A stretch of 64,000 nt of DNA from an uncultured Gammaproteobacteria bacterium (GCA_964352335.1 CAYGRO010000001.1:125942-189941); one strand, 5' to 3'; positions 8,502-42,524 are shown, numbered from the stretch's first letter. Numbers and translations are program-made. Notes: generated by a model not told the origin, from the letters alone.

Positions 8502-9155
8502 TTGAATATTTTTATTGGCAAAGCAGTCCAAGGAGGACTGTTTTGTATTACCAAACAACAAAACAAGAAAGAGAGCATTTACGTGCTCGAGAATACTCCC
8601 GTGCCGTCTCGTGTCTCGGTCATCACCGACTATACGAGTGGAATGGCTATTGGCAACCGGTTCAAGATCTTGATGGGACATATCCTTTCTGGTGTTGACC
8701 CGAAAGTCTTTTCTCGGGCCGAAGAAGCTCGACAGTGGATCTCTACCAATCGACACCAACCCCCATTCCTCTACAACATCATGTGGCCCATACTAGACCA
8801 CTTCAACTCCCCTGAAGAACTGGGAGAAGAAATCCGTCGTGTCGGGTGGCTCGTCTGGGGCCTTGAACCCTTTGTCCTCAAGGGGATCAGTCACATCCTC
8901 ATCTACGGCATTCCTGGCCGAGCGGAGATCAAAGCTTCTTTGATGAAGATGCAATTCCCCAAAGACGAGGAAACCAAGCGCTTCAGCCTGCAGGTCGAAG
9001 CTGAGCTTGAGCAACATCGACCGTTGGGTGAACCACGTCAACCACCTGTCACCGACTACATCGAGATGGGGAAAAAGGGAGACGCCGTGGACCGTCTCTG
9101 CTTGCTCTGGGGCAACTGCCAAGACGTCGCCAACCGAACCCGAATCCGCTCTTGA
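8502..9155 (+). CDS. hypothetical protein partnered with the two receivers; start uncertain, GTG at 8583 is an alternative
   Basis: Long ORF in the same high-GC block. No family recognised. Confidence 0.4.
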   Translation: MNIFIGKAVQGGLFCITKQQNKKESIYVLENTPVPSRVSVITDYTSGMAIGNRFKILMGHILSGVDPKVFSRAEEARQWISTNRHQPPFLYNIMWPILDHFNSPEELGEEIRRVGWLVWGLEPFVLKGISHILIYGIPGRAEIKASLMKMQFPKDEETKRFSLQVEAELEQHRPLGEPRQPPVTDYIEMGKKGDAVDRLCLLWGNCQDVANRTRIRS

Positions 9156-9202
9156 CAACCCAGATATTCTGTCCTATGCTAGGTACAGGATAGGAGGAAT
9201 CC

Positions 9203-9310
9203 ATGAACGAAATCGAAAAGGCCTTCGCGGCCGCCCTCGACGCCAAGATCAACTCGATCTCGGCGAAGAAGACCGAGCCTTCCGAGGCTCACACCACGTC
9301 CGCGGCCTAG
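9203..9310 (+). CDS. small ORF, 35 aa (MNEIEKAFAAALDAKINSISAKKTEPSEAHTTSAA)
   Basis: Strong SD GGAGGA 6 nt upstream of ATG. Below the ORF-track length cutoff. Inside the high-GC block. Confidence 0.35.
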   Translation: MNEIEKAFAAALDAKINSISAKKTEPSEAHTTSAA

Positions 9311-9539
9311 CACCATGCTGGGCCACAACAATTCGTCGCAACCGCCTTGAGGTGGAACCAGTCATCGCTCTCCCGAGCAACCGACCAGTTCCACCTCTTC
9401 GCCTTTATAGGGACTTTTTCAAGTCTTTTTTTAATACAAAAAAACACCCATCTCTAGGTGCCAACCATCTTAGCAAAAGCCTACTCTCCTACTTTCCTAC
9501 TAGCTTTTAGCAAAGTAGCTAGTAAGAGGGTAGCGACAA

Positions 9540-10508
9540 TTAAACAGTCTCCGGAAACAACATATCAATAATCTTGCTCGCCACATCTCGAGACTTACCA
9601 ATGGTTGGTTCATGATGAATGGTTAAACCTGGATCAGATTCTAATTCAGTAATAAAGCCAGGTCGCCTTGAAATATCTGTAGAAAAAAAATCTACTCCAA
9701 TAATGTCAGCATCAAAATACTTCGCAATTTTTTTAGCCATTTGTTTTACTTCTTTGCAAAGTGAATCAGTTATATCAATAGAAATACCTCCACGATGAGA
9801 ATTTGAAAGCATTCCCAATGCAATTCTTTGGCCACGAGTTGGGATATCGGTTAATTTCATTCCTTGCTTTTTGAGTAATGCCTTACTTTCATCTGTCATT
9901 TTAATTTTTCTATTAGCAACTGGAACTATTTTATTCCATGAAAGGAGCAAATCATTAATAGAAGATTTTCCATCACCAAGAAGATGAGCTGGTACGCGCT
10001 TTACCGCAAAAACAAATTTTTTATTCACCACAAGAATACGATGATCTTCTCCTTTTAATTGTTTTTGAGCTAAAACTGTTTTTTTATATCTTCGACTACA
10101 ACTTAAAGATTTTTCTATTGCTTTTTTAAACTGAGATGGCTTTGTAATATTTACCGTAACACCTTTTCCACCATAGGAGTCCGTTGGTTTAATTACAATC
10201 TGTTTATGCTTATGTAAAAATGCTGTTAATTCTTTTTTTGAATCTGTTAAAAGACAAACGGGCGATGGCAAAGCTAGATCTTGTAAAATTTGAGCCGTTA
10301 AATATTTATCATTAAAAATATCACCGCTTACATACCCCGTTTTATTAGTACCAGCGCGCTTAATAAATTCACGATGTTTTTTGTATTCCAAAATTGCATA
10401 GCTTTCATATTTTTTCCCAAACCCTTTTACAGAAATACCTCGAGAACGAGCTTCATCTACAAGATATTGTGTATAGATACTGAATTTGTGTTCTACTGTT
10501 TTTTTCAT
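9540..10508 (-). CDS. RimK-like ATP-grasp ligase (CphA N-domain-like)
   Basis: Motifs IVIKPTDSYGGKGV and DIIGVDFF, and a C-terminal PTIGKSRDVASKIIDMLFP motif like other RimK-type grasp enzymes. Confidence 0.7.
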   Translation of the reverse strand: MKKTVEHKFSIYTQYLVDEARSRGISVKGFGKKYESYAILEYKKHREFIKRAGTNKTGYVSGDIFNDKYLTAQILQDLALPSPVCLLTDSKKELTAFLHKHKQIVIKPTDSYGGKGVTVNITKPSQFKKAIEKSLSCSRRYKKTVLAQKQLKGEDHRILVVNKKFVFAVKRVPAHLLGDGKSSINDLLLSWNKIVPVANRKIKMTDESKALLKKQGMKLTDIPTRGQRIALGMLSNSHRGGISIDITDSLCKEVKQMAKKIAKYFDADIIGVDFFSTDISRRPGFITELESDPGLTIHHEPTIGKSRDVASKIIDMLFPETV

Positions 10509-21391: not shown

Positions 21392-21464
21392 GTGGATGTA
21401 GCTTAACAGGGAGAGCACGTCATCAAAAGTGACGAAGGTAGGGGTTCGAGACCCTTCATCCACA
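21392..21464 (+). tRNA. tRNA-like gene with non-canonical anticodon loop UCAAAAG (C33, anticodon AAA if read conventionally)
   Basis: Perfect 7-bp acceptor GTGGATG/CATCCAC. D-loop has A14, G18, G19, A21. Anticodon stem CGTCA/TGACG. T-arm AGGGG-TTCGAGA-CCCTT. Confidence 0.5.
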
Positions 21465-26217: not shown

Positions 26218-26925
26218 TCATGGTGCTAGCGGTGGGTTTTTGTTTTGTTTTTTTAAATTTTGCAAATCTTCATTCCATTTGTTTACATTGTTAATGATAT
26301 ATCTCCTCGCATTAAATAAATGGGTTTCATTTCGAATAATTGTTTCATGATAATTTCGTTGCCATATTATTCCATCAAATCCAGACAACCGAGCCTCACG
26401 CGTAACCGCAGATTTATATGACCGAATAATGGCCGATAATGAACCAGGTTTAATCACGCCATATGCCGGCACACACCCCACCCGGGAATGATTCGTACGC
26501 CAACGGCGACGGAGGGGCGCAGCATGCTGCGCCCCTCCGTCGCCGTTGGCGTCATCGGGTTTGGCGCGTGGGGTGTGTGCCGGCTGGTGATCAACATGAT
26601 TCTTGATATGAATCATCGCATGCACATGGTCGGGCATGATAATAAATTCATCAACAACAACATTTGGAAAATGGTTCGGTATTTCTTGTAAAAACCTTTC
26701 TGCAATTTCACCATATTTTGATAAATTCATTTTGCCGTTTTTTATGTGACCAAATAACCTTAATCGATCTTTGGTACAAATCGTGACAAAATAATATCCG
26801 ATCGAACAATAATCATGCATTCGTAACCGAATTGATCTTCTCCCACCATCTCGCATAAAAAATACCCCACAGCAATAGCATTGATGTGAGGTGCTTATAT
26901 TATACCATACCCATTGACACCCCAC
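26218..26925 (-). CDS. REP-associated tyrosine transposase (RAYT) / IS200-like Y1 HuH transposase
   Basis: Motifs YCSIGYYFVTICTKDR, HuH MPDHVHAMIH and catalytic Tyr region IWQRNYHETIIRNE...YIINN. The true start is probably internal (MRDGG... or MHDYC...). Confidence 0.7.
   Translation of the reverse strand: MGCQWVWYNISTSHQCYCCGVFFMRDGGRRSIRLRMHDYCSIGYYFVTICTKDRLRLFGHIKNGKMNLSKYGEIAERFLQEIPNHFPNVVVDEFIIMPDHVHAMIHIKNHVDHQPAHTPRAKPDDANGDGGAQHAAPLRRRWRTNHSRVGCVPAYGVIKPGSLSAIIRSYKSAVTREARLSGFDGIIWQRNYHETIIRNETHLFNARRYIINNVNKWNEDLQNLKKQNKNPPLAP
26464..26588. repeat. GC-rich perfect palindrome embedded in-frame in the RAYT gene
   Basis: Outer gccggcacacaccccac / gtggggtgtgtgccggc. Inner 52-bp perfect palindrome gccaacggcgacggaggggcgcagcatgctgcgcccctccgtcgccgttggc. 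It carries the same CCCCTCC/GGAGGGG arms as the intergenic REP-like family. Confidence 0.6.
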
Positions 26926-30498: not shown

Positions 30499-30625
30499 TA
30501 CAACTTTTTTTCAATCGAAAAACACCTAGTTTAAAACCAGGTGTTTTTTGATTTTAGCTAAACCCTTGTCATATTAACTAATATCTGTTAACTTCCCCCT
30601 TAACCCAATACCTAAGGAGATTCCG

Positions 30626-30955
30626 TTGAATATTTTCTTCTACCCCAATTACATCAACTGCCAAGCGACGAGAAGTCTTTCGCCTTGGCTCTACAAACAG
30701 CTAGACGCGAGAGAAATCCCACTAGAGGAAATCTTCTGGGCGGGTGAACTCGATGCCATACTGCGAATCGAAAAGCCATCAATTATCCGAGCATCCTCTG
30801 TTATGAGGTGCCAAGAAAAAGACCTCGCCGAGGTTTGCCACCAAAAAGGACATTTTCTCTTCTACGACGACCACCACATCCTGCCATCGGGCAGAGTCTC
30901 GGGAAAAGAAGCTGAGCTCGCACTTCGCGAATGGCTCGACAGAAACGCCAATTAG
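30626..30955 (+). CDS. hypothetical protein; high-GC cassette, TTG start
   Basis: AAGGAG 6 nt upstream of TTG. GC about 52%. Confidence 0.4.
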   Translation: MNIFFYPNYINCQATRSLSPWLYKQLDAREIPLEEIFWAGELDAILRIEKPSIIRASSVMRCQEKDLAEVCHQKGHFLFYDDHHILPSGRVSGKEAELALREWLDRNAN

Positions 30956-30998
30956 CCCACGACGGAGTTCACCTCTGTTCGTGGGCTTCGTTGTTTAT
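30954..30998 (+). terminator. terminator module copy 1 (gcccacga ... tcgtgggc followed by ttcgttgtttattgg)
   Basis: 8-bp stem. Near-identical copy at 31378..31425. Confidence 0.5.
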
Positions 30999-31065
30999 TG
31001 GAGTAATTGACAGCAAAACCAAAAAAAGGTTTAATCACCTTTCATGGATCTAGTATGGAGGTACT

Positions 31066-31364
31066 CTGTGAATAATACCGAGACGGTTTCGATCAAACTA
31101 TTCTTGTCCAAAGATGTCTTGGGAGAACCAATTTACACGGCCGAGGTCCACTGCCCTTCAAGGGAGGTCACACAAGGAACGGGAAATTGCGTCACGATAC
31201 AATTCCTCACCCATGTGATACGAGGCTTTCTCATTTCTTTTGGGAGAAAGTCTGGTGAAACCCCGGATGAGATTGTGGTGGAGCATGGTTCAAAAAGAAA
31301 AAACAAGCAAGTTACCGAAACCGAGCTTCAGACGGTAAAGCAAGCACTAAAGGAGTTCATCTAA
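31066..31364 (+). CDS. hypothetical protein; high-GC cassette, GTG start after GGAGG
   Basis: GC-rich ORF. The track lists it as 31044..31364. Confidence 0.4.
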
Positions 31365-31377
31365 TCAAAAAAAACGG

Positions 31378-31425
31378 GAAGCGGCCCACGACGGAGTAAT
31401 CCATTCGTGGGCTTCGTTGTTTATT
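31378..31425 (+). terminator. terminator module copy 2, identical stem and tail to 30954..30998
   Basis: gcccacgacggagtaatccattcgtgggcttcgttgtttattgg. Confidence 0.5.
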
Positions 31426-31434
31426 GGGGCGAAA

Positions 31435-32169
31435 TTATGATCTAAAGTTTTCAAATGAATTATCACATTCATTTAATTGATTCTGATTCTCAGGGCTCTT
31501 GAGGAGAATATCTAAATAGGCCTTTGTTGAAATTAATTGATTCGCTCGTTCATAATCTATCTCTTCTGTACGAGAGACTAAATTGTTTGAAATAAGTTCT
31601 TGTCGCACTAATTCTAATTCATTTTGGTTTGCATCTACCGCCAGAACTGGTTGAATAAGAGCACAAGAAAAAACTTTAGAGGCTTCTTTTTCTTTAAGCA
31701 AATAAATCTTTGACCAACGTTCAACATATCCAGCACCTGTAGAGAAACCACTTCCACCTGCGCTAAATTCGTATTGTGTTAAAAGGTCTTGGCTATTAGA
31801 TTCACAGTATTCATAAGGAAGCATTTCACCAGAAGCTCTTACAAGCAATGAGCTATCACATCTTAAAGAAAGCTGAGCTTGATTTAAGCTTTTGTACATT
31901 CTATATGGCCCCGAGTAATCCGGATAATACCCCAGTGCACCAATGAGAAAAGCGTTATTTGATGCATACGCTTCAATAGCCATATCCAATTCATCAAGCG
32001 CATAATAATCTGGTATGCTTTGGTTTTTTGGTGATAGTAATGGAGCTGAACTTTCTTGTTCAATTGTCGTTGATTGTTTTTGCTCCCCGTTATTACAACT
32101 TGCCCCCAAAAGAAGGATAGCTGAAAGAGAGATGATAGATACGTATTTCATATAAACAGAATTTATCAT
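31435..32169 (-). CDS. lipoprotein, function unknown
   Basis: Signal peptide with lipobox LLLGASC. Confidence 0.55.
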   Translation of the reverse strand: MINSVYMKYVSIISLSAILLLGASCNNGEQKQSTTIEQESSAPLLSPKNQSIPDYYALDELDMAIEAYASNNAFLIGALGYYPDYSGPYRMYKSLNQAQLSLRCDSSLLVRASGEMLPYEYCESNSQDLLTQYEFSAGGSGFSTGAGYVERWSKIYLLKEKEASKVFSCALIQPVLAVDANQNELELVRQELISNNLVSRTEEIDYERANQLISTKAYLDILLKSPENQNQLNECDNSFENFRS

Positions 32170-32206
32170 AGAAAATATCCCTCTACAAATGAGGAGGGTG
32201 TTTTTC

Positions 32207-32626: not shown

Positions 32627-32834
32627 ATATTTTGAATCTAATTTTTCTCATAGTAACACAATAGCCCCAACTAGTTCCATGGATATCAAAAAAAAGACAG
32701 TAAAATTAGTGTACTTTCATGGCTGAGCCACGTGAACGGGAGCGTTCAATGTTGGTCCTGTCGCGTATAACCAGCAAGCTGGCACGCGACTCCCGCCTAC
32801 GAAAAAACAGCAGTACGAGCTGCTGTTTTTACGT

Positions 32835-32895
32835 GGCGGGCCGGACGAGAATCGAACTCGCGATCTTCTCCGTGACAGGGAGACGTGATAACCGT
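32835..32895 (-). pseudogene. 61-nt 3' fragment of tRNA-Asp (D-loop through CCA); direct repeat of 37627..37687
   Basis: Identical to the 3' portion of the intact tRNA-Asp 4.8 kb away. Homology stops at the tRNA D-loop. Confidence 0.65.
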
Positions 32896-32908
32896 TTGTG
32901 GAACGGAG

Positions 32909-34027
32909 CTATGGGTAAGTTTTAATGTTTTTCAATCTTGGGTACAGAATAGTGTCTTTGATGTCATCATGACATAATGCCCAAGTTATGAATCTTTCTA
33001 ATCCTAATCCAAACCCAGATGTTGTTTTATAATTAGGCATATCTCTTAGATCTATATACCACTGATATGATAATGGACTTATATTTTGTCTGTTTAATGA
33101 TTCTAAAATTTCTTCTGAAGAGTTTTGTCTTTCTCCACACCCAACAACTTCTCCTCCAAATGAGTTCTGAGTAATTGGTGGAAATATTAAGTCCCCATTG
33201 ATAACTTTGTCTGCATCATTCTCATCAGGTTTTTGGTAAAAAGGAACTCTATCTCTATCAAAATTTTTGATCCAGAATGGGGTTAAGAATTTGAAAATAT
33301 TAGCTAATTTTATTTCTCCTTCAGAAGAAATATCTCTGCCATGTTCCGTAAAGTTAATAAGTGATTCAAAACCATGCTTTTTTAGACTAGAAACAGCCTG
33401 ATCAAAAGAGATTGAAGGGAACGTCTTTGACTGCATTATTTTTGTTAAAGATAAATTAGTTTGTTCTGGATTTAAACTGATTTTATTAATAATTCTTGGC
33501 ATTTCTAAAAGTGTAGCTGCAAGATGTTTGATATAGGATTCTATTATTGGGTATAAAGAATCGAGATCCCCCAAGATTTCTGCTTCGCAATGAAAAAATT
33601 GATTTAAATGACGCTTGTCAGGGTCTTCTCCTCTCATAGATGGTAAATAGCAATATACTTTATCTATATTGTTCATAAGTATAGGTTCGAATCCAAACTG
33701 AGACGAATCGACTAGATTTGATACATGTTTACCAAACTGAATTGGTAGTGGTTCTGAGTCAGATCCTGGACCCATTGGAGATGAAACACTTGGTGTAATC
33801 ATAAATAAATCAATATTTTTGGCTCCAACTATATTACTAAAATAATAATCTGAAATTTTTTTCAAATAGTGTCTAAGAATTATTAAAGCACGGAAATAAT
33901 TGCTATTTGTAAGATCTTTATAATGAGAAGCAGGGTTATATTTTGGTATTGCGCAAGAATCTTTGTTTAGTGAAATAAAAATCTGGTCATCTTTAAACAT
34001 TTCCTCTTTCAGATTGTCGGGTATCAT
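32909..34027 (-). CDS. class II aminoacyl-tRNA synthetase catalytic-core paralog (Asp/Asn/Lys-RS type, no anticodon-binding domain; AsnA-like)
   Basis: Motif 2-like RGEDPDKRHLNQFFHCEAE. GGEVVGCGER motif. Motif 3 SGFGLGLERFITWALCHDDIKDTILYPR. Confidence 0.6.
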   Translation of the reverse strand: MIPDNLKEEMFKDDQIFISLNKDSCAIPKYNPASHYKDLTNSNYFRALIILRHYLKKISDYYFSNIVGAKNIDLFMITPSVSSPMGPGSDSEPLPIQFGKHVSNLVDSSQFGFEPILMNNIDKVYCYLPSMRGEDPDKRHLNQFFHCEAEILGDLDSLYPIIESYIKHLAATLLEMPRIINKISLNPEQTNLSLTKIMQSKTFPSISFDQAVSSLKKHGFESLINFTEHGRDISSEGEIKLANIFKFLTPFWIKNFDRDRVPFYQKPDENDADKVINGDLIFPPITQNSFGGEVVGCGERQNSSEEILESLNRQNISPLSYQWYIDLRDMPNYKTTSGFGLGLERFITWALCHDDIKDTILYPRLKNIKTYP

Positions 34028-34030
34028 AGA

Positions 34031-35023
34031 TTAATTCTCAATTATTTTAAATTCAACTGTCTCATTAACTATAGTTAACTCTGCTGTCCCTCCTATTGGC
34101 ATAGTAAGCAATGGCGAAGTATGACCAAAATCTACATTTGCTATGATAGGGATATCTTGTAGTTCTTGTTTTGATTTAATAATTTTCATTAATAAATCTT
34201 TAGACATTTTTGTTTCTTTTTGAAAACGTCCGATGCAGATAGCTTTTACTCCAGAAAAATCTGATTGATGTATTAGAGATTGAAGCTGTCTGTCGAATAA
34301 TTGAGGATTTATCTCAGCATCTTCTTCTAATATAAGAAGAGAGTCTTCCAACATTGGCCAGTATTCTGTCCCTTGAAGAGCATTAAGACATCTCATATGC
34401 CCTCCAATAATTCGTCCTAGAGCATGCCCCGTATTGATAATCCAATAACCAGAATTATCAATGAACTCTCTGTTTTCTTGATCAAGATACCATTGGTCGT
34501 CACTCCACTCTTTTGAGGGCTCGATATTAAAAGATTCCGAATTAGTGCAAGCTTTTTCAAAATAATCTTTTGTATAAGTAAAACCTTTTTTCATCGCCCA
34601 TGTAGAAAAATGAGGACCAATATAACAAATCATTCCTGTTTTAGTATTGATAGCATTTGCAAGAACTGTTATATCAGAGAAACCACAAAAAACCTTGGGG
34701 TTTTTTAAGATAAGGTCATAATCTATATATTGCAATAATTGATTAGCATTATATCCACCAATAACACTAAATATTGCATCTACAGTTGGGTCTTTAAATG
34801 CATCGTGTAAATCAGATACCCTAGATTCAACAGATGATGATATAAATTCATCTAATTCTGAAACATTTTTCCCGAATGATAACTTAAATCCGAATTTTTC
34901 TAAGTTTTTGATTGACTCTGCGATAATTTCATCAGTCAATAAACTTAAGCTTCTTGATGGTGCAATAATTCTTATATGATCACCTTTCTCAAGTTTCCTT
35001 GGTCGTATTGTATTTTTAATCAT
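34031..35023 (-). CDS. S66 family LD-carboxypeptidase (LdcA/MccF-like)
   Basis: Nucleophile motif FCGFSDITVLANAI, plus GGYNANQLL and a C-terminal His region. Confidence 0.75.
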   Translation of the reverse strand: MIKNTIRPRKLEKGDHIRIIAPSRSLSLLTDEIIAESIKNLEKFGFKLSFGKNVSELDEFISSSVESRVSDLHDAFKDPTVDAIFSVIGGYNANQLLQYIDYDLILKNPKVFCGFSDITVLANAINTKTGMICYIGPHFSTWAMKKGFTYTKDYFEKACTNSESFNIEPSKEWSDDQWYLDQENREFIDNSGYWIINTGHALGRIIGGHMRCLNALQGTEYWPMLEDSLLILEEDAEINPQLFDRQLQSLIHQSDFSGVKAICIGRFQKETKMSKDLLMKIIKSKQELQDIPIIANVDFGHTSPLLTMPIGGTAELTIVNETVEFKIIEN

Positions 35024-35027
35024 AAAG

Positions 35028-36149
35028 TTATTCTGGTTTAGATAAAGCTTGTTTAGTCTTTAATTCATTAGTAGTTAGCTTTTGTCTTGATTCTAGATCT
35101 CGCTCAAGTGCTTTAATTATATCTATAAGAAGATGCGGCACACTAGGGTCTGTATCGAATGGTGCTCGCTCTTGAAAGCTAGTAATCATTTGCTCAAGAT
35201 CATCTATATTGATCCCTGATTTTGCCCGAAAGTAACTCAAAGATCTTACATATTCTTTCAATATTCTATTTCTATTATGCTGTCCAAAAGGACGGAGACC
35301 TTCTCCAAATAATAAACTCGAGGTGATTATAGAATCTTCGAATTTTCTTTTGATTGCTTCATTTTCAATTTTTTCCAATCCTAATACGGGGAGACAGTCT
35401 TGAACATGTTCTAATCCAAACATTTGTTTTAGAATCATGGTTGATCCTAGTGCCGTTTCAACTCCAAGTCCTTGCTTATCATTTTCAAGCATTATTATAT
35501 TTCCAATATCAGCAAATTCACCAGATTTAGCATTTCTAATAGCTATGTTAAAATTTCTTCCTCTAACTCCTTTGACACCTATTTTATGACGATAGAAAGA
35601 TAAGGGCTTTGTATCTACTTCCTTTGAAATAGTAGCTACAGTTTTTTCACAAGCATCTAAAAGATCATTGTCCGATGAGTGTATCCTTATTAATAAATCT
35701 TTATTTGAAACTCCTAATGCTTTTTGCAGAAATGAAAAAGCATTTGAACATGATTGCTCAAGCTGGTCAGGGTTGTTGAGAGCTCCAATGCTAGGGAAAT
35801 ATGACCCCCAGTTAGGATTATATTCATCATCGAACAATTTATTTGTATTCCTTGTTCTTAAACAATCTTGTTTAATATATAATCCTTCTTCCGGTATCCT
35901 GTCTTCAAGTAGATAAGGTTTTAGTACACTAATATGAGAGCCTATAAACCTAACCGTAGGGTCTATACCAGAGGTAACCAATAAGGGGGGCTCTTCTGTG
36001 TATCCTAAAGAATTGAAATGAGATTTGAACAATAGTACAAGTCTTTCAATATATTCTTTAGATTTTTCTTTGTTGAATTCTTTATCCGGCAAATGTTCGC
36101 TTATATGGCTTTGATCAAATTTTTCTGACATATTTATATAAAAGTACAA
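35028..36149 (-). CDS. alanyl-tRNA synthetase catalytic-domain-like protein (truncated AlaRS paralog)
   Basis: The AlaRS N-domain pattern F..F.S.G...DPT..F ... Q.C.R is conserved. Motif-3-like GLGVETALGSTMILKQ. No editing or C-terminal domains. Confidence 0.5.
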   Translation of the reverse strand: MYFYINMSEKFDQSHISEHLPDKEFNKEKSKEYIERLVLLFKSHFNSLGYTEEPPLLVTSGIDPTVRFIGSHISVLKPYLLEDRIPEEGLYIKQDCLRTRNTNKLFDDEYNPNWGSYFPSIGALNNPDQLEQSCSNAFSFLQKALGVSNKDLLIRIHSSDNDLLDACEKTVATISKEVDTKPLSFYRHKIGVKGVRGRNFNIAIRNAKSGEFADIGNIIMLENDKQGLGVETALGSTMILKQMFGLEHVQDCLPVLGLEKIENEAIKRKFEDSIITSSLLFGEGLRPFGQHNRNRILKEYVRSLSYFRAKSGINIDDLEQMITSFQERAPFDTDPSVPHLLIDIIKALERDLESRQKLTTNELKTKQALSKPE

Positions 36150-36907
36150 CTAATCATTATCAAAAACTTATTTCTTTTGAATAAGTTTTTAGCAATATAT
36201 CCAATAGTTTTAATAAAAAATTTAGGCGTTTCCATAATTAAAGGATTCCCGAAATAATCAATATTTATGGAGCCAACATTTTTGTTTGATGCTTTAGCTG
36301 CTACTTCAATAATATTTATTATTGATTTGGTAGAGTAAAAATGCTCTGTATCTAGTTTATATCCTGGAATGAATTTAAGATACTTTAAAATCCATGCTTT
36401 TAGCGTAGGGCCAGAATAGAAATTAGGCATACCAATAGCAATTGATCCATTTTTACTAGAGACCCTGATCATTTCTTTAATAATCAAACTTATTTCTTTA
36501 GGTTTATAGTGCTCAATAACTCCAATATTCCAAACAAAATCAAATGATTCATCTGGGATATTCATCTCAAATATATTACCCTCCTGATAAGTAATCTCAT
36601 TCTGGTTTAGCTTTTGTGATAAAAATTCAGCATATGTTAATGCCGAGGGAGAAATGTCTAATAGGGTTTTAGTATAATTACTATCTAATAGTAGCGTTGC
36701 TTTGCCAGAGCCGCAGCCAGGCTCAAGAATAGAATTATATTTGTTCTTTTGCATTATGGTGTTGCCAAAATAAGATAATTCTTCGTAATACTCTTCCCAC
36801 CAGTAGGAAGAGTACTTTTTGAAACTTGTTTGATTTAATTCATTAGAAAAAATTTTGCTCCACTGTTCGTTTTCATGCTGAATCATCTCATTTAAACTAT
36901 TACTCAT
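36134..36907 (-). CDS. class I SAM-dependent methyltransferase
   Basis: Motif I ILEPGCGSGKATLLL. Confidence 0.7.
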   Translation of the reverse strand: MSNSLNEMIQHENEQWSKIFSNELNQTSFKKYSSYWWEEYYEELSYFGNTIMQKNKYNSILEPGCGSGKATLLLDSNYTKTLLDISPSALTYAEFLSQKLNQNEITYQEGNIFEMNIPDESFDFVWNIGVIEHYKPKEISLIIKEMIRVSSKNGSIAIGMPNFYSGPTLKAWILKYLKFIPGYKLDTEHFYSTKSIINIIEVAAKASNKNVGSINIDYFGNPLIMETPKFFIKTIGYIAKNLFKRNKFLIMISCTFI

Positions 36908-37551
36908 AGATTGTTTTGAACTAATTCTTTTTTGAGTTGGTCTAAAAATAATAATAAAAAGGCCGTTCGTTGCTCAGCTATTTCTTTTGCAGCTTTGGTA
37001 TGAAGCCTGTCTTTTATTACTAATAGTCTGGTATAAAAAAGATCTAAAGCATATTTTGAATTATCAGGAAGTCGATTAACACAAAAAGGATCTAGCGTGT
37101 TATAAAAGCTCATATTCATAGATCCTGCAGAAGCAAAAGTTCTCATTATTGATATAGCGCCTGTTGCCTCTAGGCTATCTGCATCTTGTAATATTTTACC
37201 TTCAATAAAATCCACTGTTGTCCCTTTTGAAAAAGAACAGTTAATTATTGATTGATATACTAAATCAATTTTTTCTGATGGGTAATCTTTATCTTTTTCT
37301 AGAGCTTCCTTTGCAAATAAAGCACTTTCTATTGAGCTATTATGTCTGTTTTTATGGTTTTTAGGGTAGCAAATCACATCATGAAAAATTGCAGCAGGAA
37401 TAACGATTTCTAAATCAGCATTTTCATCTTTAGCTAGTGTTTGAGCGATAGAAAGTACACGAAAAGCATGGTCAATATCATGAGATGAGTCATTTTCTAG
37501 TATCTTTTTTTTCGCTAACTCGATTAGTCTTTTTTTGATTAAATCATTCAT
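36904..37551 (-). CDS. HD domain phosphohydrolase
   Basis: H...HD...H...D metal ligands (HDIDHAF ... FHDV ... D). Confidence 0.7.
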   Translation of the reverse strand: MNDLIKKRLIELAKKKILENDSSHDIDHAFRVLSIAQTLAKDENADLEIVIPAAIFHDVICYPKNHKNRHNSSIESALFAKEALEKDKDYPSEKIDLVYQSIINCSFSKGTTVDFIEGKILQDADSLEATGAISIMRTFASAGSMNMSFYNTLDPFCVNRLPDNSKYALDLFYTRLLVIKDRLHTKAAKEIAEQRTAFLLLFLDQLKKELVQNNL

Positions 37552-37626
37552 ATGCTAAATCTTAGCAAAATATTGCGTGCCAATCTACCTAATCAAAAAC
37601 ACCGCTAGTTTTAGCGATGCTTTTGA

Positions 37627-37702
37627 TGGCGGGCCGGACGAGAATCGAACTCGCGATCTTCTCCGTGACAGGGAGACGTGATAACCGCTACACTACCGGC
37701 CC
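37627..37702 (-). tRNA. tRNA-Asp (anticodon GTC), CCA encoded
   Basis: GGGCCGG acceptor, anticodon loop CTGTCAC, T-arm GCGAG-TTCGATT-CTCGT, 3' CCGGCCC-G-CCA. Confidence 0.85.
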
Positions 37703-37909
37703 AAATATTAAATTGTCTTTCCACAAGATTTATCGTTCCAAAGTTCCTCAAGGAGCGAAGGAAGATAAACAAAACCCGCCCGTTAAGGAGGGTATGGAGA
37801 ATATAGCAAATGGAGGGATATTTGTCTAGAAGAGCTGAAATCATTGACTTATGCTAGAAATGATGCTAATTTTTACTGTCAACAAAAACACAAGGACAGT
37901 ACAGACCTA

Positions 37910-38620
37910 ATGAACAATAAGAACCGTATCGCCCTGGTGGTGGCCTTTCTTCTCGTTATTGGAACTAGCTGGTTGCTGGTCTCAAAAAAGGAAAGGCAGC
38001 CGAAGCCTATTCCCCCAGCCCCGTCGGTAAGTATCGCCCCGCTTAATACGCGGGCAACCCATACGCTCCTTCCGGGGGCGGCCGTGCCAACCATGGAGCA
38101 AGTCTACTTTGTGAGCAACCTCATGCTCCCAATGTTCGACAAGACGGCACTGACTTACCCAGAACCGAGCATTCGCGAACGCTTTGCTCGCTTCCTGCAA
38201 AGAACCAGAGACGGAGGGGATGTTCATTTCAATATGGACACCGGAATCCAATCCCAAGTGATGGCTGCGGTCAGTCTTCATGAAGGGAGGATCACCTTAA
38301 CCATTTGGGTTTGTGTGCCAATGCAATGGTACAAAGAATCAGGTGAGGATCTAGAAGCTCTCGAAGACGAAATGGTGATGAGCATGCTCCATGAGCAATA
38401 TCATGTAGAGCACCATGTTTTGCAAAACGCACCTCATCGCCTCGCCGAGTCGGAAGCTTGGTGGTATACCATTGAAACGGTCTGCCTCCCCATGCGAAAA
38501 ACTGGCCGTCTCAAAAAAATCAAGCCATTCTTGGCAAGAGCACTCGAGGCTTATCGTCAGGCCAATGGTGACCCAAAGTCTGCCAGTTGGCAGAACTTCC
38601 TCGACGAGCTAGGAAACTAA
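37910..38620 (+). CDS. membrane-anchored hypothetical protein; high-GC cassette abutting tRNA-Asp
   Basis: N-terminal TM helix (IALVVAFLLVIGTSWLLV). GC about 55%. Upstream TTGACT-17-TAATTT. Confidence 0.4.
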   Translation: MNNKNRIALVVAFLLVIGTSWLLVSKKERQPKPIPPAPSVSIAPLNTRATHTLLPGAAVPTMEQVYFVSNLMLPMFDKTALTYPEPSIRERFARFLQRTRDGGDVHFNMDTGIQSQVMAAVSLHEGRITLTIWVCVPMQWYKESGEDLEALEDEMVMSMLHEQYHVEHHVLQNAPHRLAESEAWWYTIETVCLPMRKTGRLKKIKPFLARALEAYRQANGDPKSASWQNFLDELGN

Positions 38621-40840: not shown

Positions 40841-41755
40841 ATGAATAATGCAATTACAATAAAAGACCTCACAAAAACATACCAGTCAAAAGCTGGAGAA
40901 GTACATGCCCTCAAAGGGGTTTCTTTTGAAATTAAAAAAGGAGAACTCTTTGGATTACTCGGACCAAATGGTGCTGGTAAATCTACATTGATCAATATCT
41001 TAGGAGGCGTTTCAGAAAAAACAAGTGGAACAGCCATTGTAGACGGTGTAGACATTTCTAAAGACCATAGAGCAGCTAAAATGAAACTTGGTATTGTTGG
41101 CCAAGAAATTTCTTTTGATGCGTTTTTAACTTTAGAACAAGCACTTCTCTTACAATTTGGGTATTACAATCTGCCAATCGATAGAGACCATATGATGAAA
41201 GTGCTAAAACAATTAGCATTAGACGACAAATTAAAAGCAAATCCTCGTTGGCTTTCTGGTGGAATGAAAAGACGCTTTATGATTGCCCGAGCCATGATGC
41301 ATAAACCAGAAATTCTCATTTTAGACGAACCAACAGCTGGTGTAGATGTAGAATTACGTCATGATATGTACGACTTAATTCGCACATTACACGAAAGCGG
41401 GACCACGATTATTTTAACGACTCATTATTTAGAAGAAGTAGAACTCTTAGCTGAACGCGTTGGGATTCTAAAAAAAGGTGAACTTGTTGCCCTAGATAAT
41501 AAACATGATTTAAAAGATCGTTTTCAATCTACAAGAGAATTAAAACTTGCCTTAACAGAAGCACTTACAACAATCCCAGAATCACTCACTATTTTTTCCC
41601 CTAAACAAAATGGAACTGAATTGGTTTTAACTTTTGAAGAAGTTGATTATAAAAAAGTCCTTCAAGTAGTTGCCAAAGCCGATTTACCAGTCGCCCATTT
41701 TACAGTGATTGAACCAACAATTGAAGATGTTTTCTTGAACCTAACAAAAAACTAA
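40841..41755 (+). CDS. ABC transporter ATP-binding protein
   Basis: Walker A GPNGAGKST, signature LSGGMKRR, Walker B ILILDEP. Confidence 0.85.
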   Translation: MNNAITIKDLTKTYQSKAGEVHALKGVSFEIKKGELFGLLGPNGAGKSTLINILGGVSEKTSGTAIVDGVDISKDHRAAKMKLGIVGQEISFDAFLTLEQALLLQFGYYNLPIDRDHMMKVLKQLALDDKLKANPRWLSGGMKRRFMIARAMMHKPEILILDEPTAGVDVELRHDMYDLIRTLHESGTTIILTTHYLEEVELLAERVGILKKGELVALDNKHDLKDRFQSTRELKLALTEALTTIPESLTIFSPKQNGTELVLTFEEVDYKKVLQVVAKADLPVAHFTVIEPTIEDVFLNLTKN

Positions 41756-41756
41756 T

Positions 41757-42524
41757 ATGATGATTAATACCCGTGGTGTTTTAACCATGATGAAAAAAGA
41801 ATGGCTTCGTATTAAAGATGTTTGGAAGCAAAGCATCCTTGCCCCTGTTATTTCTAACCTCCTCTTTTTTGTTGTCTTCGGCGTTGCTATTGCTGGTCGC
41901 GTGCAAACCCCAGACGGATTTAGTTATTTAACGGTGCTTGTTCCAGGTCTTGTGGCCATGGGATTAATGATGAATGCCCTACAAAACCCAATCTTCTCTC
42001 TCGTTATTTCTAAGTACTCAAATAATATTGCCGACTTACTCATGCTCCCTTTAAGCGGGCTTGAACTTGCTTTTGGGTATTTATTCGGAGGCATGATCAG
42101 AGGATTTGCCGTTGCTCTTGTGACCCTAATTGTTGGAATGTTCTTTACACCAGTTCCCTTCACCCATCCATTCTTGATTATCCTTTTCCTTTTCTTAATT
42201 GGAGGTATCTTTGCTTCCCTTGGATCAATGATCGGAGTTATTGCCGACGACTTTGATAAAGGAAACTTCATCCCAACTTTTGTGATCAACCCCTTAATTT
42301 ATTTGGGTGGTGTTTTCTATTCCGTAGACCAATTACCAGGAGTCCTCGCTTCTATCTCAAAATTCAATCCAATCCTCTATATGATTGACGGACTCCGATA
42401 CAGCTTCTTAGGCGTCGGTGACATCTCAATCGCAATCTCCCTCACAATCACAACCATCATCTTCCTCATCACCTTCTCCATCACCAGTTACATGTTCCAC
42501 ACAGGATATAAATTAAAAACCTAG
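41757..42524 (+). CDS. ABC-2 type transporter permease
   Basis: Six-TM ABC-2 permease; start overlaps the ATPase stop. Confidence 0.7.
   Translation: MMINTRGVLTMMKKEWLRIKDVWKQSILAPVISNLLFFVVFGVAIAGRVQTPDGFSYLTVLVPGLVAMGLMMNALQNPIFSLVISKYSNNIADLLMLPLSGLELAFGYLFGGMIRGFAVALVTLIVGMFFTPVPFTHPFLIILFLFLIGGIFASLGSMIGVIADDFDKGNFIPTFVINPLIYLGGVFYSVDQLPGVLASISKFNPILYMIDGLRYSFLGVGDISIAISLTITTIIFLITFSITSYMFHTGYKLKT

Follow-up and report, generated by a model that had tools for sequence, protein, structure and literature searches.

A five-gene island at a tRNA-Asp gene with an AgnA-like synthetase and an MccF-type peptidase: a candidate operon for an aminoacyl-nucleotide-like inhibitor

Introduction

What might be produced by a compact operon that combines two relatives of aminoacyl-tRNA synthetases (aaRS) with an S66 peptidase, a methyltransferase, and a phosphohydrolase, and how did such an operon come to lie at a tRNA gene? 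The question is raised by a stretch of 64,000 nucleotides, here called the window, from an uncultured bacterium filed under Gammaproteobacteria (GCA_964352335.1, CAYGRO010000001.1:125942-189941). A first interpretation made from this DNA alone (the sequence-only reading) had described a tRNA-integrated island carrying a candidate aminoacyl-nucleotide antibiotic locus. Analysis of the five gene products by homology suggests that this compact operon serves both the biosynthesis of, and the immunity to, an aaRS inhibitor resembling aminoacyl-nucleotides, a reading that we consider about evenly poised between right and wrong. The segment itself, 4.7 kb in length, is a horizontally acquired island at the 3' end of a tRNA-Asp gene, and its genes form a cassette that is a widespread portable operon. 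The locus contains the following features, all on the minus strand.

32806-32824, minus: terminator-like hairpin followed by a T run, directly downstream of the partial tRNA copy (motif scan; inverted repeat)
32834-32894, minus: attR-like direct repeat, a 61-nt copy of the tRNA-Asp 3' end (apparently the displaced native 3' end)
32909-34027, minus: AgnA-like synthetase, 372 amino acids, class IIb (AsnRS-type) catalytic core without anticodon-binding domain (PF00152, E = 5e-25)
34031-35023, minus: MccF-type S66 serine peptidase, 330 amino acids (S66 N- and C-terminal domains, Pfam E = 1.8e-35 and 2.8e-27)
35028-36131, minus: truncated AlaRS-like protein, 367 amino acids, with aminoacylation and helical tRNA-recognition domains (profile, structure, MAFFT)
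36134-36907, minus: class I S-adenosylmethionine (SAM)-dependent methyltransferase, 257 amino acids (Pfam, NCBIfam; generic)
36904-37551, minus: HD-domain phosphohydrolase, YedJ-like, 215 amino acids (Pfam HD, E = 7e-11)
37627-37687, minus: attL-like direct repeat, the 3' 61 nt of the intact tRNA-Asp gene
37627-37702, minus: tRNA-Asp(GTC), intact (ARAGORN; Rfam 66.9 bits)
37800-37828, minus: promoter-like site upstream of the tRNA, the best of the region (10/12 matches, extended -10)

An AgnA-like synthetase and an MccF-type peptidase

The 372-residue protein was compared by BLASTP with AgnA of the agrocin 84 plasmid pAgK84, a comparison that was reached via the search with the S66 peptidase. 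Query residues 14-364 aligned with 117 of 359 positions identical (33%, E = 2e-49), and the alignment takes in the region before residue 100, which failed to align with asparaginyl-tRNA synthetase (AsnRS). Aligned to the catalytic domain of P. horikoshii AsnRS (1x54), the protein contains all of the motifs PSMRGE, RHLNQFFHCEAE, GGE..G.G.RQ, and GFGLG.ER. Motif 2 (PSMRGE, R132/E134) and motif 3 (GLER, R345) are intact, and residues R132, E134, R300, and R345 do not vary among 32 homologs; the binding site for ATP and the amino acid therefore appears to be intact, with pocket motifs that are AsnRS-like by alignment. The NCBIfam models for AsnA and AsnRS remained far below their cut-offs (AsnA 148 vs 389 bits), and archaeal AsnA in the PDB gave 29.5 bits only; AgnA itself reached 88.9 bits with its best AsnRS in the PDB. 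Judged by these comparisons, the protein is not AsnA; it is homologous to AgnA over its full length. The Pfam match covers the core only, in agreement with the earlier description as a class IIb aaRS core without anticodon-binding domain. AgnA is likewise a truncated AsnRS lacking this domain and is proposed to join an amide moiety to AMP via a phosphoramidate bond (PMC8323819, PMC4392301).

In the S66 peptidase the triad S116/E234/H301 aligns with S118/E243/H311 of E. coli MccF, and W178 aligns with the adenine-stacking residue W186. In MccF, W186 stacks on the nucleobase (PMC8323819). MccF proteins were matched over their full length with E-values of 1e-35 to 1e-42, whereas LdcA-type enzymes reached about 1e-20, mostly with one domain (the N-terminal one), and the NCBIfam LdcA model scored 98.5 bits against a cut-off of 378 bits. 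The structures BA_5613 and Lmo1638, designated 'MccF-like', gave E = 1e-108; a search of the literature on the S66 subfamily of these two proteins found nothing relevant. Identity to AgnC5, the S66 protein of the agrocin 84 cluster, is 28%. The peptidase thus appears to be of the MccF type rather than the LdcA type. The sequence-only reading had left both types open and had counted a bona fide murein LD-carboxypeptidase among the outcomes that would speak against it; conserved triad and Trp as well as the full-length match place the enzyme, by sequence, on the MccF side.

A remodelled AlaRS fragment and two putative tailoring enzymes

The open reading frame (ORF) of the AlaRS-like protein as listed reaches 36149 with a TTG start; the called product, P0121, begins at the ATG at 36131. 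Its Pfam match to alanyl-tRNA synthetase (AlaRS) was below threshold, and the NCBIfam AlaRS model gave 17.6 vs 529 bits. A profile of 30 sequences of this family matched AlaRS catalytic fragments in the PDB (E = 1.2e-5), and an AlphaFold2 model of the protein (pLDDT 89.7) was most similar in Foldseek to AlaRS catalytic fragments (1riq, E = 1e-12, TMq 0.70). Profile and structure thus bear out the AlaRS fold of what had been called a truncated AlaRS catalytic domain. In a MAFFT alignment with genuine AlaRS, the protein retains the Arg of motif 2 (R92) as well as Asn211; a different loop follows motif 2, and the Cys-rich insertion is gone. The Asp binding the amino group of alanine is an invariant Glu (E225) in this family, the change of motif 3 'ER' to 'TM' or 'TT' has removed its Arg, and the editing domain is missing. 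Since the motif 3 Arg is lost, the protein can hardly form an adenylate. By alignment and model, the third enzyme is a remodelled AlaRS fragment. Ordinary AsnA/AlaX paralogs, another outcome named beforehand as unfavorable, would not fit the two aaRS-like proteins, as neither the AsnA nor the AlaRS housekeeping model was reached and an AlaX-type editing domain is absent from the AlaRS-like protein.

A protein of this kind is known from the ascamycin pathway. AcmF is a truncated AlaRS-like protein with a D232E exchange and loss of adenylation residues, and it moves Ala from Ala-tRNA onto an amine (PMC12945691). The window protein shares with AcmF the truncation to aminoacylation and tRNA-recognition domains and the Asp-to-Glu exchange; its ATP-binding elements are degraded in part, with 'ER' of motif 3 lost but the Arg of motif 2 in place. 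It differs by a longer loop after motif 2 and by Asn211, where AcmF has Gln; furthermore, the window cluster is devoid of sulfamate chemistry.

The AlaRS-like family is large and distinct, with 597 representatives at 50% identity, nearly all of 320-400 amino acids. Fusions to an HD domain, a SAM methyltransferase, a GNAT domain, or a receiver domain exist, which argues for a functional tie of the AlaRS-like protein to the kinds of enzyme that its neighbor genes in the island encode. In contig L050, whose cassette has a second architecture, the synthetase is immediately preceded by a truncated AlaRS-like protein of another kind (8736-9914, 392 amino acids); its motif 3 'ER' is intact, yet Glu replaces the alanine-binding Asp.

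The remaining two proteins were confirmed by Pfam and NCBIfam as the SAM methyltransferase and the HD phosphohydrolase that had been named before. The HD protein scored 164.7 bits with PRK10119, under the cut-off of 286 bits. In sister cassettes, the type B methyltransferases c2 and c6 gave generic matches only to AgnB1.

Insertion at the tRNA-Asp gene

ARAGORN and Rfam both recognized the intact tRNA-Asp(GTC) reported previously; the Rfam scan of the window returned only tRNAs and a tmRNA. The direct repeat extends from the D-loop to the CCA end of this tRNA, is identical in 61 of 61 nt, and is the single outstanding direct repeat found in a repeat search; its distal copy lies one nucleotide to the left of the coordinates 32835-32895 given earlier. 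A 24-nt probe taken from the repeat matched the window, at ≤3 mismatches, in the two repeat copies only, with a chance expectation of 0.00. The repeats bracket a segment of 4,732 bp that holds five tightly packed minus-strand genes. These genes had been described as co-oriented and overlapping: number and orientation are correct, but spacing is 2-4 nt and a real overlap (4 nt) was found for the methyltransferase/HD pair only. Non-coding DNA amounts to 14 nt and 75 nt at the island ends. The GC content, stated before to be lower than that of the flanks, is 0.319 for the island and 0.384 for the rest of the window, and the smallest value among 100 other 4.7-kb windows was 0.355.

At 90% identity, the left-flank GNAT protein clusters with, among others, a protein from a JGI metagenome, and this protein led to contig L084; a second contig, L085, is a Logan contig. 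L084 and L085 stem from a related organism, and their flanks are 71-88% identical to those of the window. Both contigs carry, in this order, a homolog of the gene at 37844-38620, a conserved promoter stretch, tRNA-Asp, about 450 bp, and the GNAT gene; the five island genes are absent. The bases that follow the window repeat at 32834-32894 (CGT) equal the bases that follow the tRNA in L084, and the intact tRNA of the window is followed by island DNA. Taken together, this is the geometry to be expected of integration into a tRNA 3' end. Apparently, the element supplied a new tRNA 3' end and displaced the native one. The empty-site comparison proposed in the sequence-only reading thus supports its placement of an island at the tRNA-Asp 3' end.

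Two caveats apply to the comparison with L084. The stretch between tRNA and GNAT gene also differs, with a GIY-YIG ORF in L084 and 170 bp in the window, and the two window copies of the repeat agree with each other but deviate from the L084 tRNA at three positions of the T-arm. The GIY-YIG ORF (L084 1875-2135) comprises 86 amino acids; the GC-rich 170-bp stretch of the window (32663-32833) is covered solely by a probably spurious 68-amino-acid ORF at 32719-32925. Gene content also varies in a second stretch near the tRNA-Asp, between a cupin gene and the GNAT gene (window 30500-32200, L084 2816-4357), the sides of which are 84-88% identical.

An integrase or recombinase was found neither by Pfam nor by NCBIfam among the five island proteins, all of which have other identities, as had been observed at first inspection. 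The non-coding space of 75 + 14 nt leaves no room for an integrase remnant. Neighbor proteins scanned within about 8 kb gave no match to an integrase family; three of them are without any Pfam match. An exact-sequence look-up of the right-flank HI0933-like protein returned no match. A weak match to an IS200-like Y1 transposase (E = 2.7e-4, below cut-off) was seen at 26218-26925 on the minus strand. The proposal of a decayed integrative element is possible. Islands at tRNA genes include att-flanked ones without an integrase, the cis-mobilizable elements. The window island resembles tRNA-gene islands in the intact tRNA at one end, the partial 3' copy at the other, the deviant GC content, and the absence from a relative; it differs in having neither integrase nor excisionase nor space for a remnant, and in a repeat that is long (61 nt) and exact.

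The promoter-like stretch at 37800-37828 is conserved in L084. The hairpin at 32806-32824 is probably the native tRNA-Asp terminator, which now also ends the island operon. The promoter-like site precedes the tRNA and the hairpin follows attR; the operon thus lies between the tRNA and its old terminator, and we infer that it is co-transcribed with tRNA-Asp.

The cassette in other genomes

More than 1,600 database relatives of the synthetase were found; the top 120 show 60-68% identity and almost all consist of 372 amino acids. The nearest copy is 66-68% identical, and the 90%-identity cluster of the window synthetase holds this sequence alone. A scan of GTDB species representatives, a set to which the window's own genome does not belong, confirmed 100 loci, of which 80 were kept. 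Most of them are from Patescibacteria, with many candidate phyla; other loci are in bins labelled Gammaproteobacteria, Bdellovibrionales, Micavibrio, Calothrix (including a plasmid), Desulfobacteraceae, and archaea. Altogether, about 100 GTDB species representatives carry the cassette, as do hundreds of metagenomic contigs.

When the five proteins were mapped on all loci and the neighboring proteins clustered, the S66 gene accompanied the synthetase in 77 of 83. The window architecture, [HD]-methyltransferase-AlaRS-like-S66-synthetase with HD in part of the loci, was found in about 25, and at least 20 other genomes have their genes in this order. Most of the remaining loci combine the synthetase with one or two methyltransferases, the S66 peptidase, a divergently transcribed gene for a protein with a weak signature of histidyl-tRNA synthetase (HisRS), and sometimes a pyridoxal phosphate-dependent decarboxylase. 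Accessory genes vary and encode ATP-grasp, RpiB, SDR, HAD, and GT4 proteins, an APH-like kinase, HIT proteins, or an ABC exporter; nucleotide hydrolases of the HD, NUDIX, and HIT types recur within or beside the cassettes. Such variation of tailoring genes is a pattern typical of biosynthetic clusters. Some sister cassettes hold or adjoin genes for ThrRS, GlyRS, AlaRS, MetRS, or an ABC exporter, with weak enrichment. In L003 (1460-5201) genes for ThrRS, an aminotransferase, and an extra methyltransferase interrupt the cassette, and GlyRS genes flank the cassettes in L063 and L075; these ThrRS and GlyRS genes are possibly self-resistance copies. Two or three AgnA-like synthetase paralogs lie side by side in L019, L028, L040, L043, and L078.

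A tRNA within 300 bp of the cassette was found in about 8 loci only, and the cassette was not flanked by tRNA-derived direct repeats in any of 13 other loci with a nearby tRNA. The cassette usually resides at non-tRNA sites without repeats; capture at tRNA-Asp therefore appears to be specific to this genome and not the general mode of movement. The sequence-only reading had held that the same genes at non-tRNA locations without repeats would count against it. Such copies do exist in unrelated genomes, but the closest relative has an empty site and the island stands. The synthetase is 60-67% identical between candidate phyla, compared with 52-55% for the housekeeping protein GatB, which argues for horizontal transfer. 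Searches for vehicles gave negative results: no integrase or transposase was among the most frequently matched families listed for 120 cassette-flanking proteins, no viral contig with the synthetase was found, and none of 22 short contigs was circular by terminal overlap.

Several observations concern the cassette borders. Many synthetase contigs measure 4.3-6.1 kb, about the size of the cassette, which suggests that assemblies often break there. Contig L001, which has the same sequence as the island, stops after exactly 30 nt of the 61-nt repeat. In L009 (3658-3924; Patescibacteria bin) the cassette ends 33 nt before a tRNA-Asp, behind which lie two units of about 93 nt; the last 20 nt of either unit repeat the tRNA 3' end, and the units resemble stacked att-like sites on the far side of the tRNA.

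Host and neighboring genes

The window encodes GatB, GlyRS, ArgRS, and MiaB. The closest named relatives of GatB are from the Parcubacteria group and other Patescibacteria (66% identity, then about 50-55%), which places the host among the ultra-small Patescibacteria (candidate phyla radiation), with a genome of the Parcubacteria type. A DrrA-like ABC ATPase and an ABC-2 permease are encoded on the plus strand at 40841-42524, 3 kb to the right of the tRNA and outside the island. ARAGORN identified a tRNA-Phe with the anticodon AAA at 21392-21464 (Rfam 54 bits), 8 nt upstream of tRNA-Ile(GAT); anticodon and loop (TCAAAAG, position 33 C and not U) are unusual.

Proposed function and alternatives

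We propose the following course for a biosynthesis-plus-immunity operon. The AgnA-like core would couple an Asn- or Asp-like substrate to the alpha-phosphate of ATP, resulting in a stable aminoacyl-AMP mimic, as proposed for AgnA. The AlaRS-like protein would transfer an aminoacyl group, probably Ala from Ala-tRNA, onto a free amine of this intermediate, as AcmF does, and the aminoacylated intermediate would be a masked 'Trojan-horse' form. Methyltransferase and HD phosphohydrolase may tailor the phosphate, the nucleotide, or the amine. Inside the producer, the S66 peptidase would cleave the aminoacyl-nucleotide amide of the unmasked toxin and so confer self-immunity. The island would have been captured by site-specific recombination at the tRNA, with an integrase acting in trans or since lost. 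The earlier idea of an aminoacyl-nucleotide antibiotic or immunity locus has been strengthened by the homology to AgnA, the MccF-type peptidase, and the AcmF-like features; the function is predicted by homology.

Several points weigh against this proposal. In the tRNA-recognition helix, the PSN motif, presumably a part of G3:U70 recognition, reads PFG in the MAFFT alignment; with this motif missing and Asn211 retained in place of the Gln of AcmF, the tRNA dependence of the AlaRS-like protein is uncertain. In the S66 alignment, N220 of MccF is replaced by Arg and K247 by Ile, both being residues that we take to contact the substrate. The nearest relatives of the peptidase (about 50% identity; BA_5613 and Lmo1638) are uncharacterized stand-alone genes. 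An MccD-like role was considered for the methyltransferase and rejected, as similarity to MccD, AgnB1, and AgnC3 is generic only. PADLOC defence models returned only a generic methyltransferase match, and no curated system fits. The island contains neither an exporter nor a resistant aaRS copy. Likeness to AcmF was judged from the published description of that enzyme (PMC12945691), and formation of the N-P bond by AgnA is itself a proposal (PMC8323819).

The main rival holds that the product is not a nucleotide conjugate but a small modified amino acid or a dipeptide: the core would be an amide synthetase of the AsnA/SlgZ type acting on an Asp-like beta-carboxyl group, the methyltransferase would methylate the product, the AlaRS-like protein would add alanine, and the S66 enzyme would trim or recycle the peptide. 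A precedent exists in streptolydigin biosynthesis, where the AsnRS-like SlgZ and the methyltransferase SlgM act together in formation of the tetramic acid (PMC5357945). The best NCBIfam matches of the core are indeed archaeal-type AsnA and AsnRS, S66 enzymes are peptidases, and the window protein shares with archaeal-type AsnA, AsnRS, and SlgZ the class IIb catalytic core and AsnRS-like pocket motifs. It differs from these enzymes in scoring far under the equivalog cut-offs, in being paired with an S66 peptidase and horizontally mobile, and in being nearer to AgnA, with which it aligns over the full length, as opposed to the 29.5 bits for archaeal AsnA in the PDB. The nucleobase-stacking Trp of the peptidase and the recurrence of HD, NUDIX, and HIT nucleotide hydrolases also argue against this alternative, which we regard as unlikely.

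Modification of a macromolecule or a cell-wall precursor has also to be considered, with the aaRS-derived enzymes aminoacylating a protein, a tRNA nucleoside, or a muropeptide, and the S66 peptidase reversing or trimming the modification. Free-standing aaRS cores such as EpmA/PoxA and GluQRS (PMC3542578 for GluQRS) do modify macromolecules, the AgnA-like protein is very strongly conserved across phyla (mean column identity 74%), and S66 is the LD-carboxypeptidase family. The closest characterized relative of the core, AgnA, is however a small-molecule biosynthetic enzyme, the tailoring genes of the cassettes vary and are of sugar and nucleotide types, bins labelled as archaea, which would have no murein, contain the cassette, and the peptidase is nearer to MccF than to LdcA. 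This makes the explanation improbable in our view.

Slightly less probable again is a cassette for resistance or salvage only, which would detoxify or recycle the aminoacyl-nucleotide antibiotics of others and produce nothing. MccF-type enzymes give resistance as stand-alone genes (PMC8323819). HIT and GNAT proteins, which are microcin C resistance types, are encoded in the vicinity of some cassettes or form fusions with the AlaRS-like protein, and the lack of an exporter in the island would fit as well. For detoxification a hydrolase alone would be enough, and its occurrence beside an ATP-dependent synthetase with intact active site, seen in nearly all loci, points to synthesis.

A chance neighborhood of housekeeping paralogs (AsnA, an AlaRS fragment or AlaX-like protein, LdcA), already disfavored above, is highly improbable: a separate source of asparagine could help a host that uses GatB, and the generic annotations are AsnRS and LD-carboxypeptidase, but the island is absent from the closest relative and foreign in GC content, its synthetase is closer to copies from other phyla than GatB is, no equivalog model was reached, and the AlaRS-like protein has neither editing domain nor motif 3 Arg.

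Relation to known systems and significance

The synthesis of an aminoacyl-nucleotide-like inhibitor, as proposed here, has its nearest parallel in the agn cluster for agrocin 84 on pAgK84 of Rhizobium rhizogenes K84. The sequence-only reading knew of no cluster with this gene combination; the agn cluster also contains an AsnRS-like core, SAM methyltransferases, an MccF-like S66 protein, and a second class II-like protein, so that the combination has a precedent. AgnA aligns end to end with the window protein, one of the methyltransferase genes directly follows agnA, and AgnC5 is the counterpart of the peptidase. Differences are considerable: agn comprises 17 genes, including those for a resistant LeuRS, an exporter, and pentanamide and sugar enzymes, whereas the island has five genes and none of these; the methyltransferases are generically similar; and the hosts are a rhizobium and a member of the Patescibacteria, respectively. 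The second aaRS-like protein of the window is AlaRS-derived and shows no similarity to AgnC1, a protein remotely like class II aaRS (PMC8323819). Comparison of AgnC1 with the AlaRS-like profile and with the HisRS-like c3 protein of sister cassettes revealed no similarity in either case.

With the microcin C (mcc) system, for which the mcc operon in contig L087 served as comparison of gene content, the island shares the S66 peptidase with MccF triad and adenine-stacking Trp and, in its proposed function, the logic of a Trojan-horse aminoacyl-adenylate mimic with hydrolytic immunity. It differs in the replaced N220 and K247 and in a methyltransferase that is not MccD-like. An mcc cluster as such was ruled out, as there is neither an MccA peptide gene nor a ThiF-like MccB among the five genes.

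According to a review of 2021, AgnA homologs were confined to a single Ensifer cluster, and AgnC1-based agn-like clusters to Actinobacteria (PMC8323819). In the searchable literature we found no description of the present cluster, of AgnA-like genes in Patescibacteria, or of clusters combining aaRS paralogs with S66 peptidases. Clusters for Trojan-horse aminoacyl-nucleotides are a known type, of which this one would be a new form, provided that the function predicted from the sequences holds.

Tentatively, and at somewhat less than even chances, we propose that Patescibacteria and some bins labelled as predatory bacteria, cyanobacteria, and archaea share a mobile pathway for aminoacyl-nucleotide toxins resembling agrocin, microcin C, and ascamycin, consisting of an AgnA-like synthetase, a remodelled AlaRS- or HisRS-like protein, and an MccF-type peptidase, and that this pathway was captured here as an integrase-less island at tRNA-Asp. 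To our knowledge, only few natural Trojan-horse aaRS inhibitors are known, namely agrocin 84, microcin C-like compounds, albomycin, and ascamycin; the cassette could reveal a new family of compounds targeting aaRS. With five genes, including those for AgnA-like and MccF-type proteins, it would be a minimal and tractable system for finding out what AgnA-type enzymes do. As far as we know, genomes of Patescibacteria are thought to hold very little secondary metabolism. If our proposal is true, the cassette would assign offensive or defensive chemistry to these bacteria and would represent a previously unrecognized chemical weapon of genome-reduced episymbionts.

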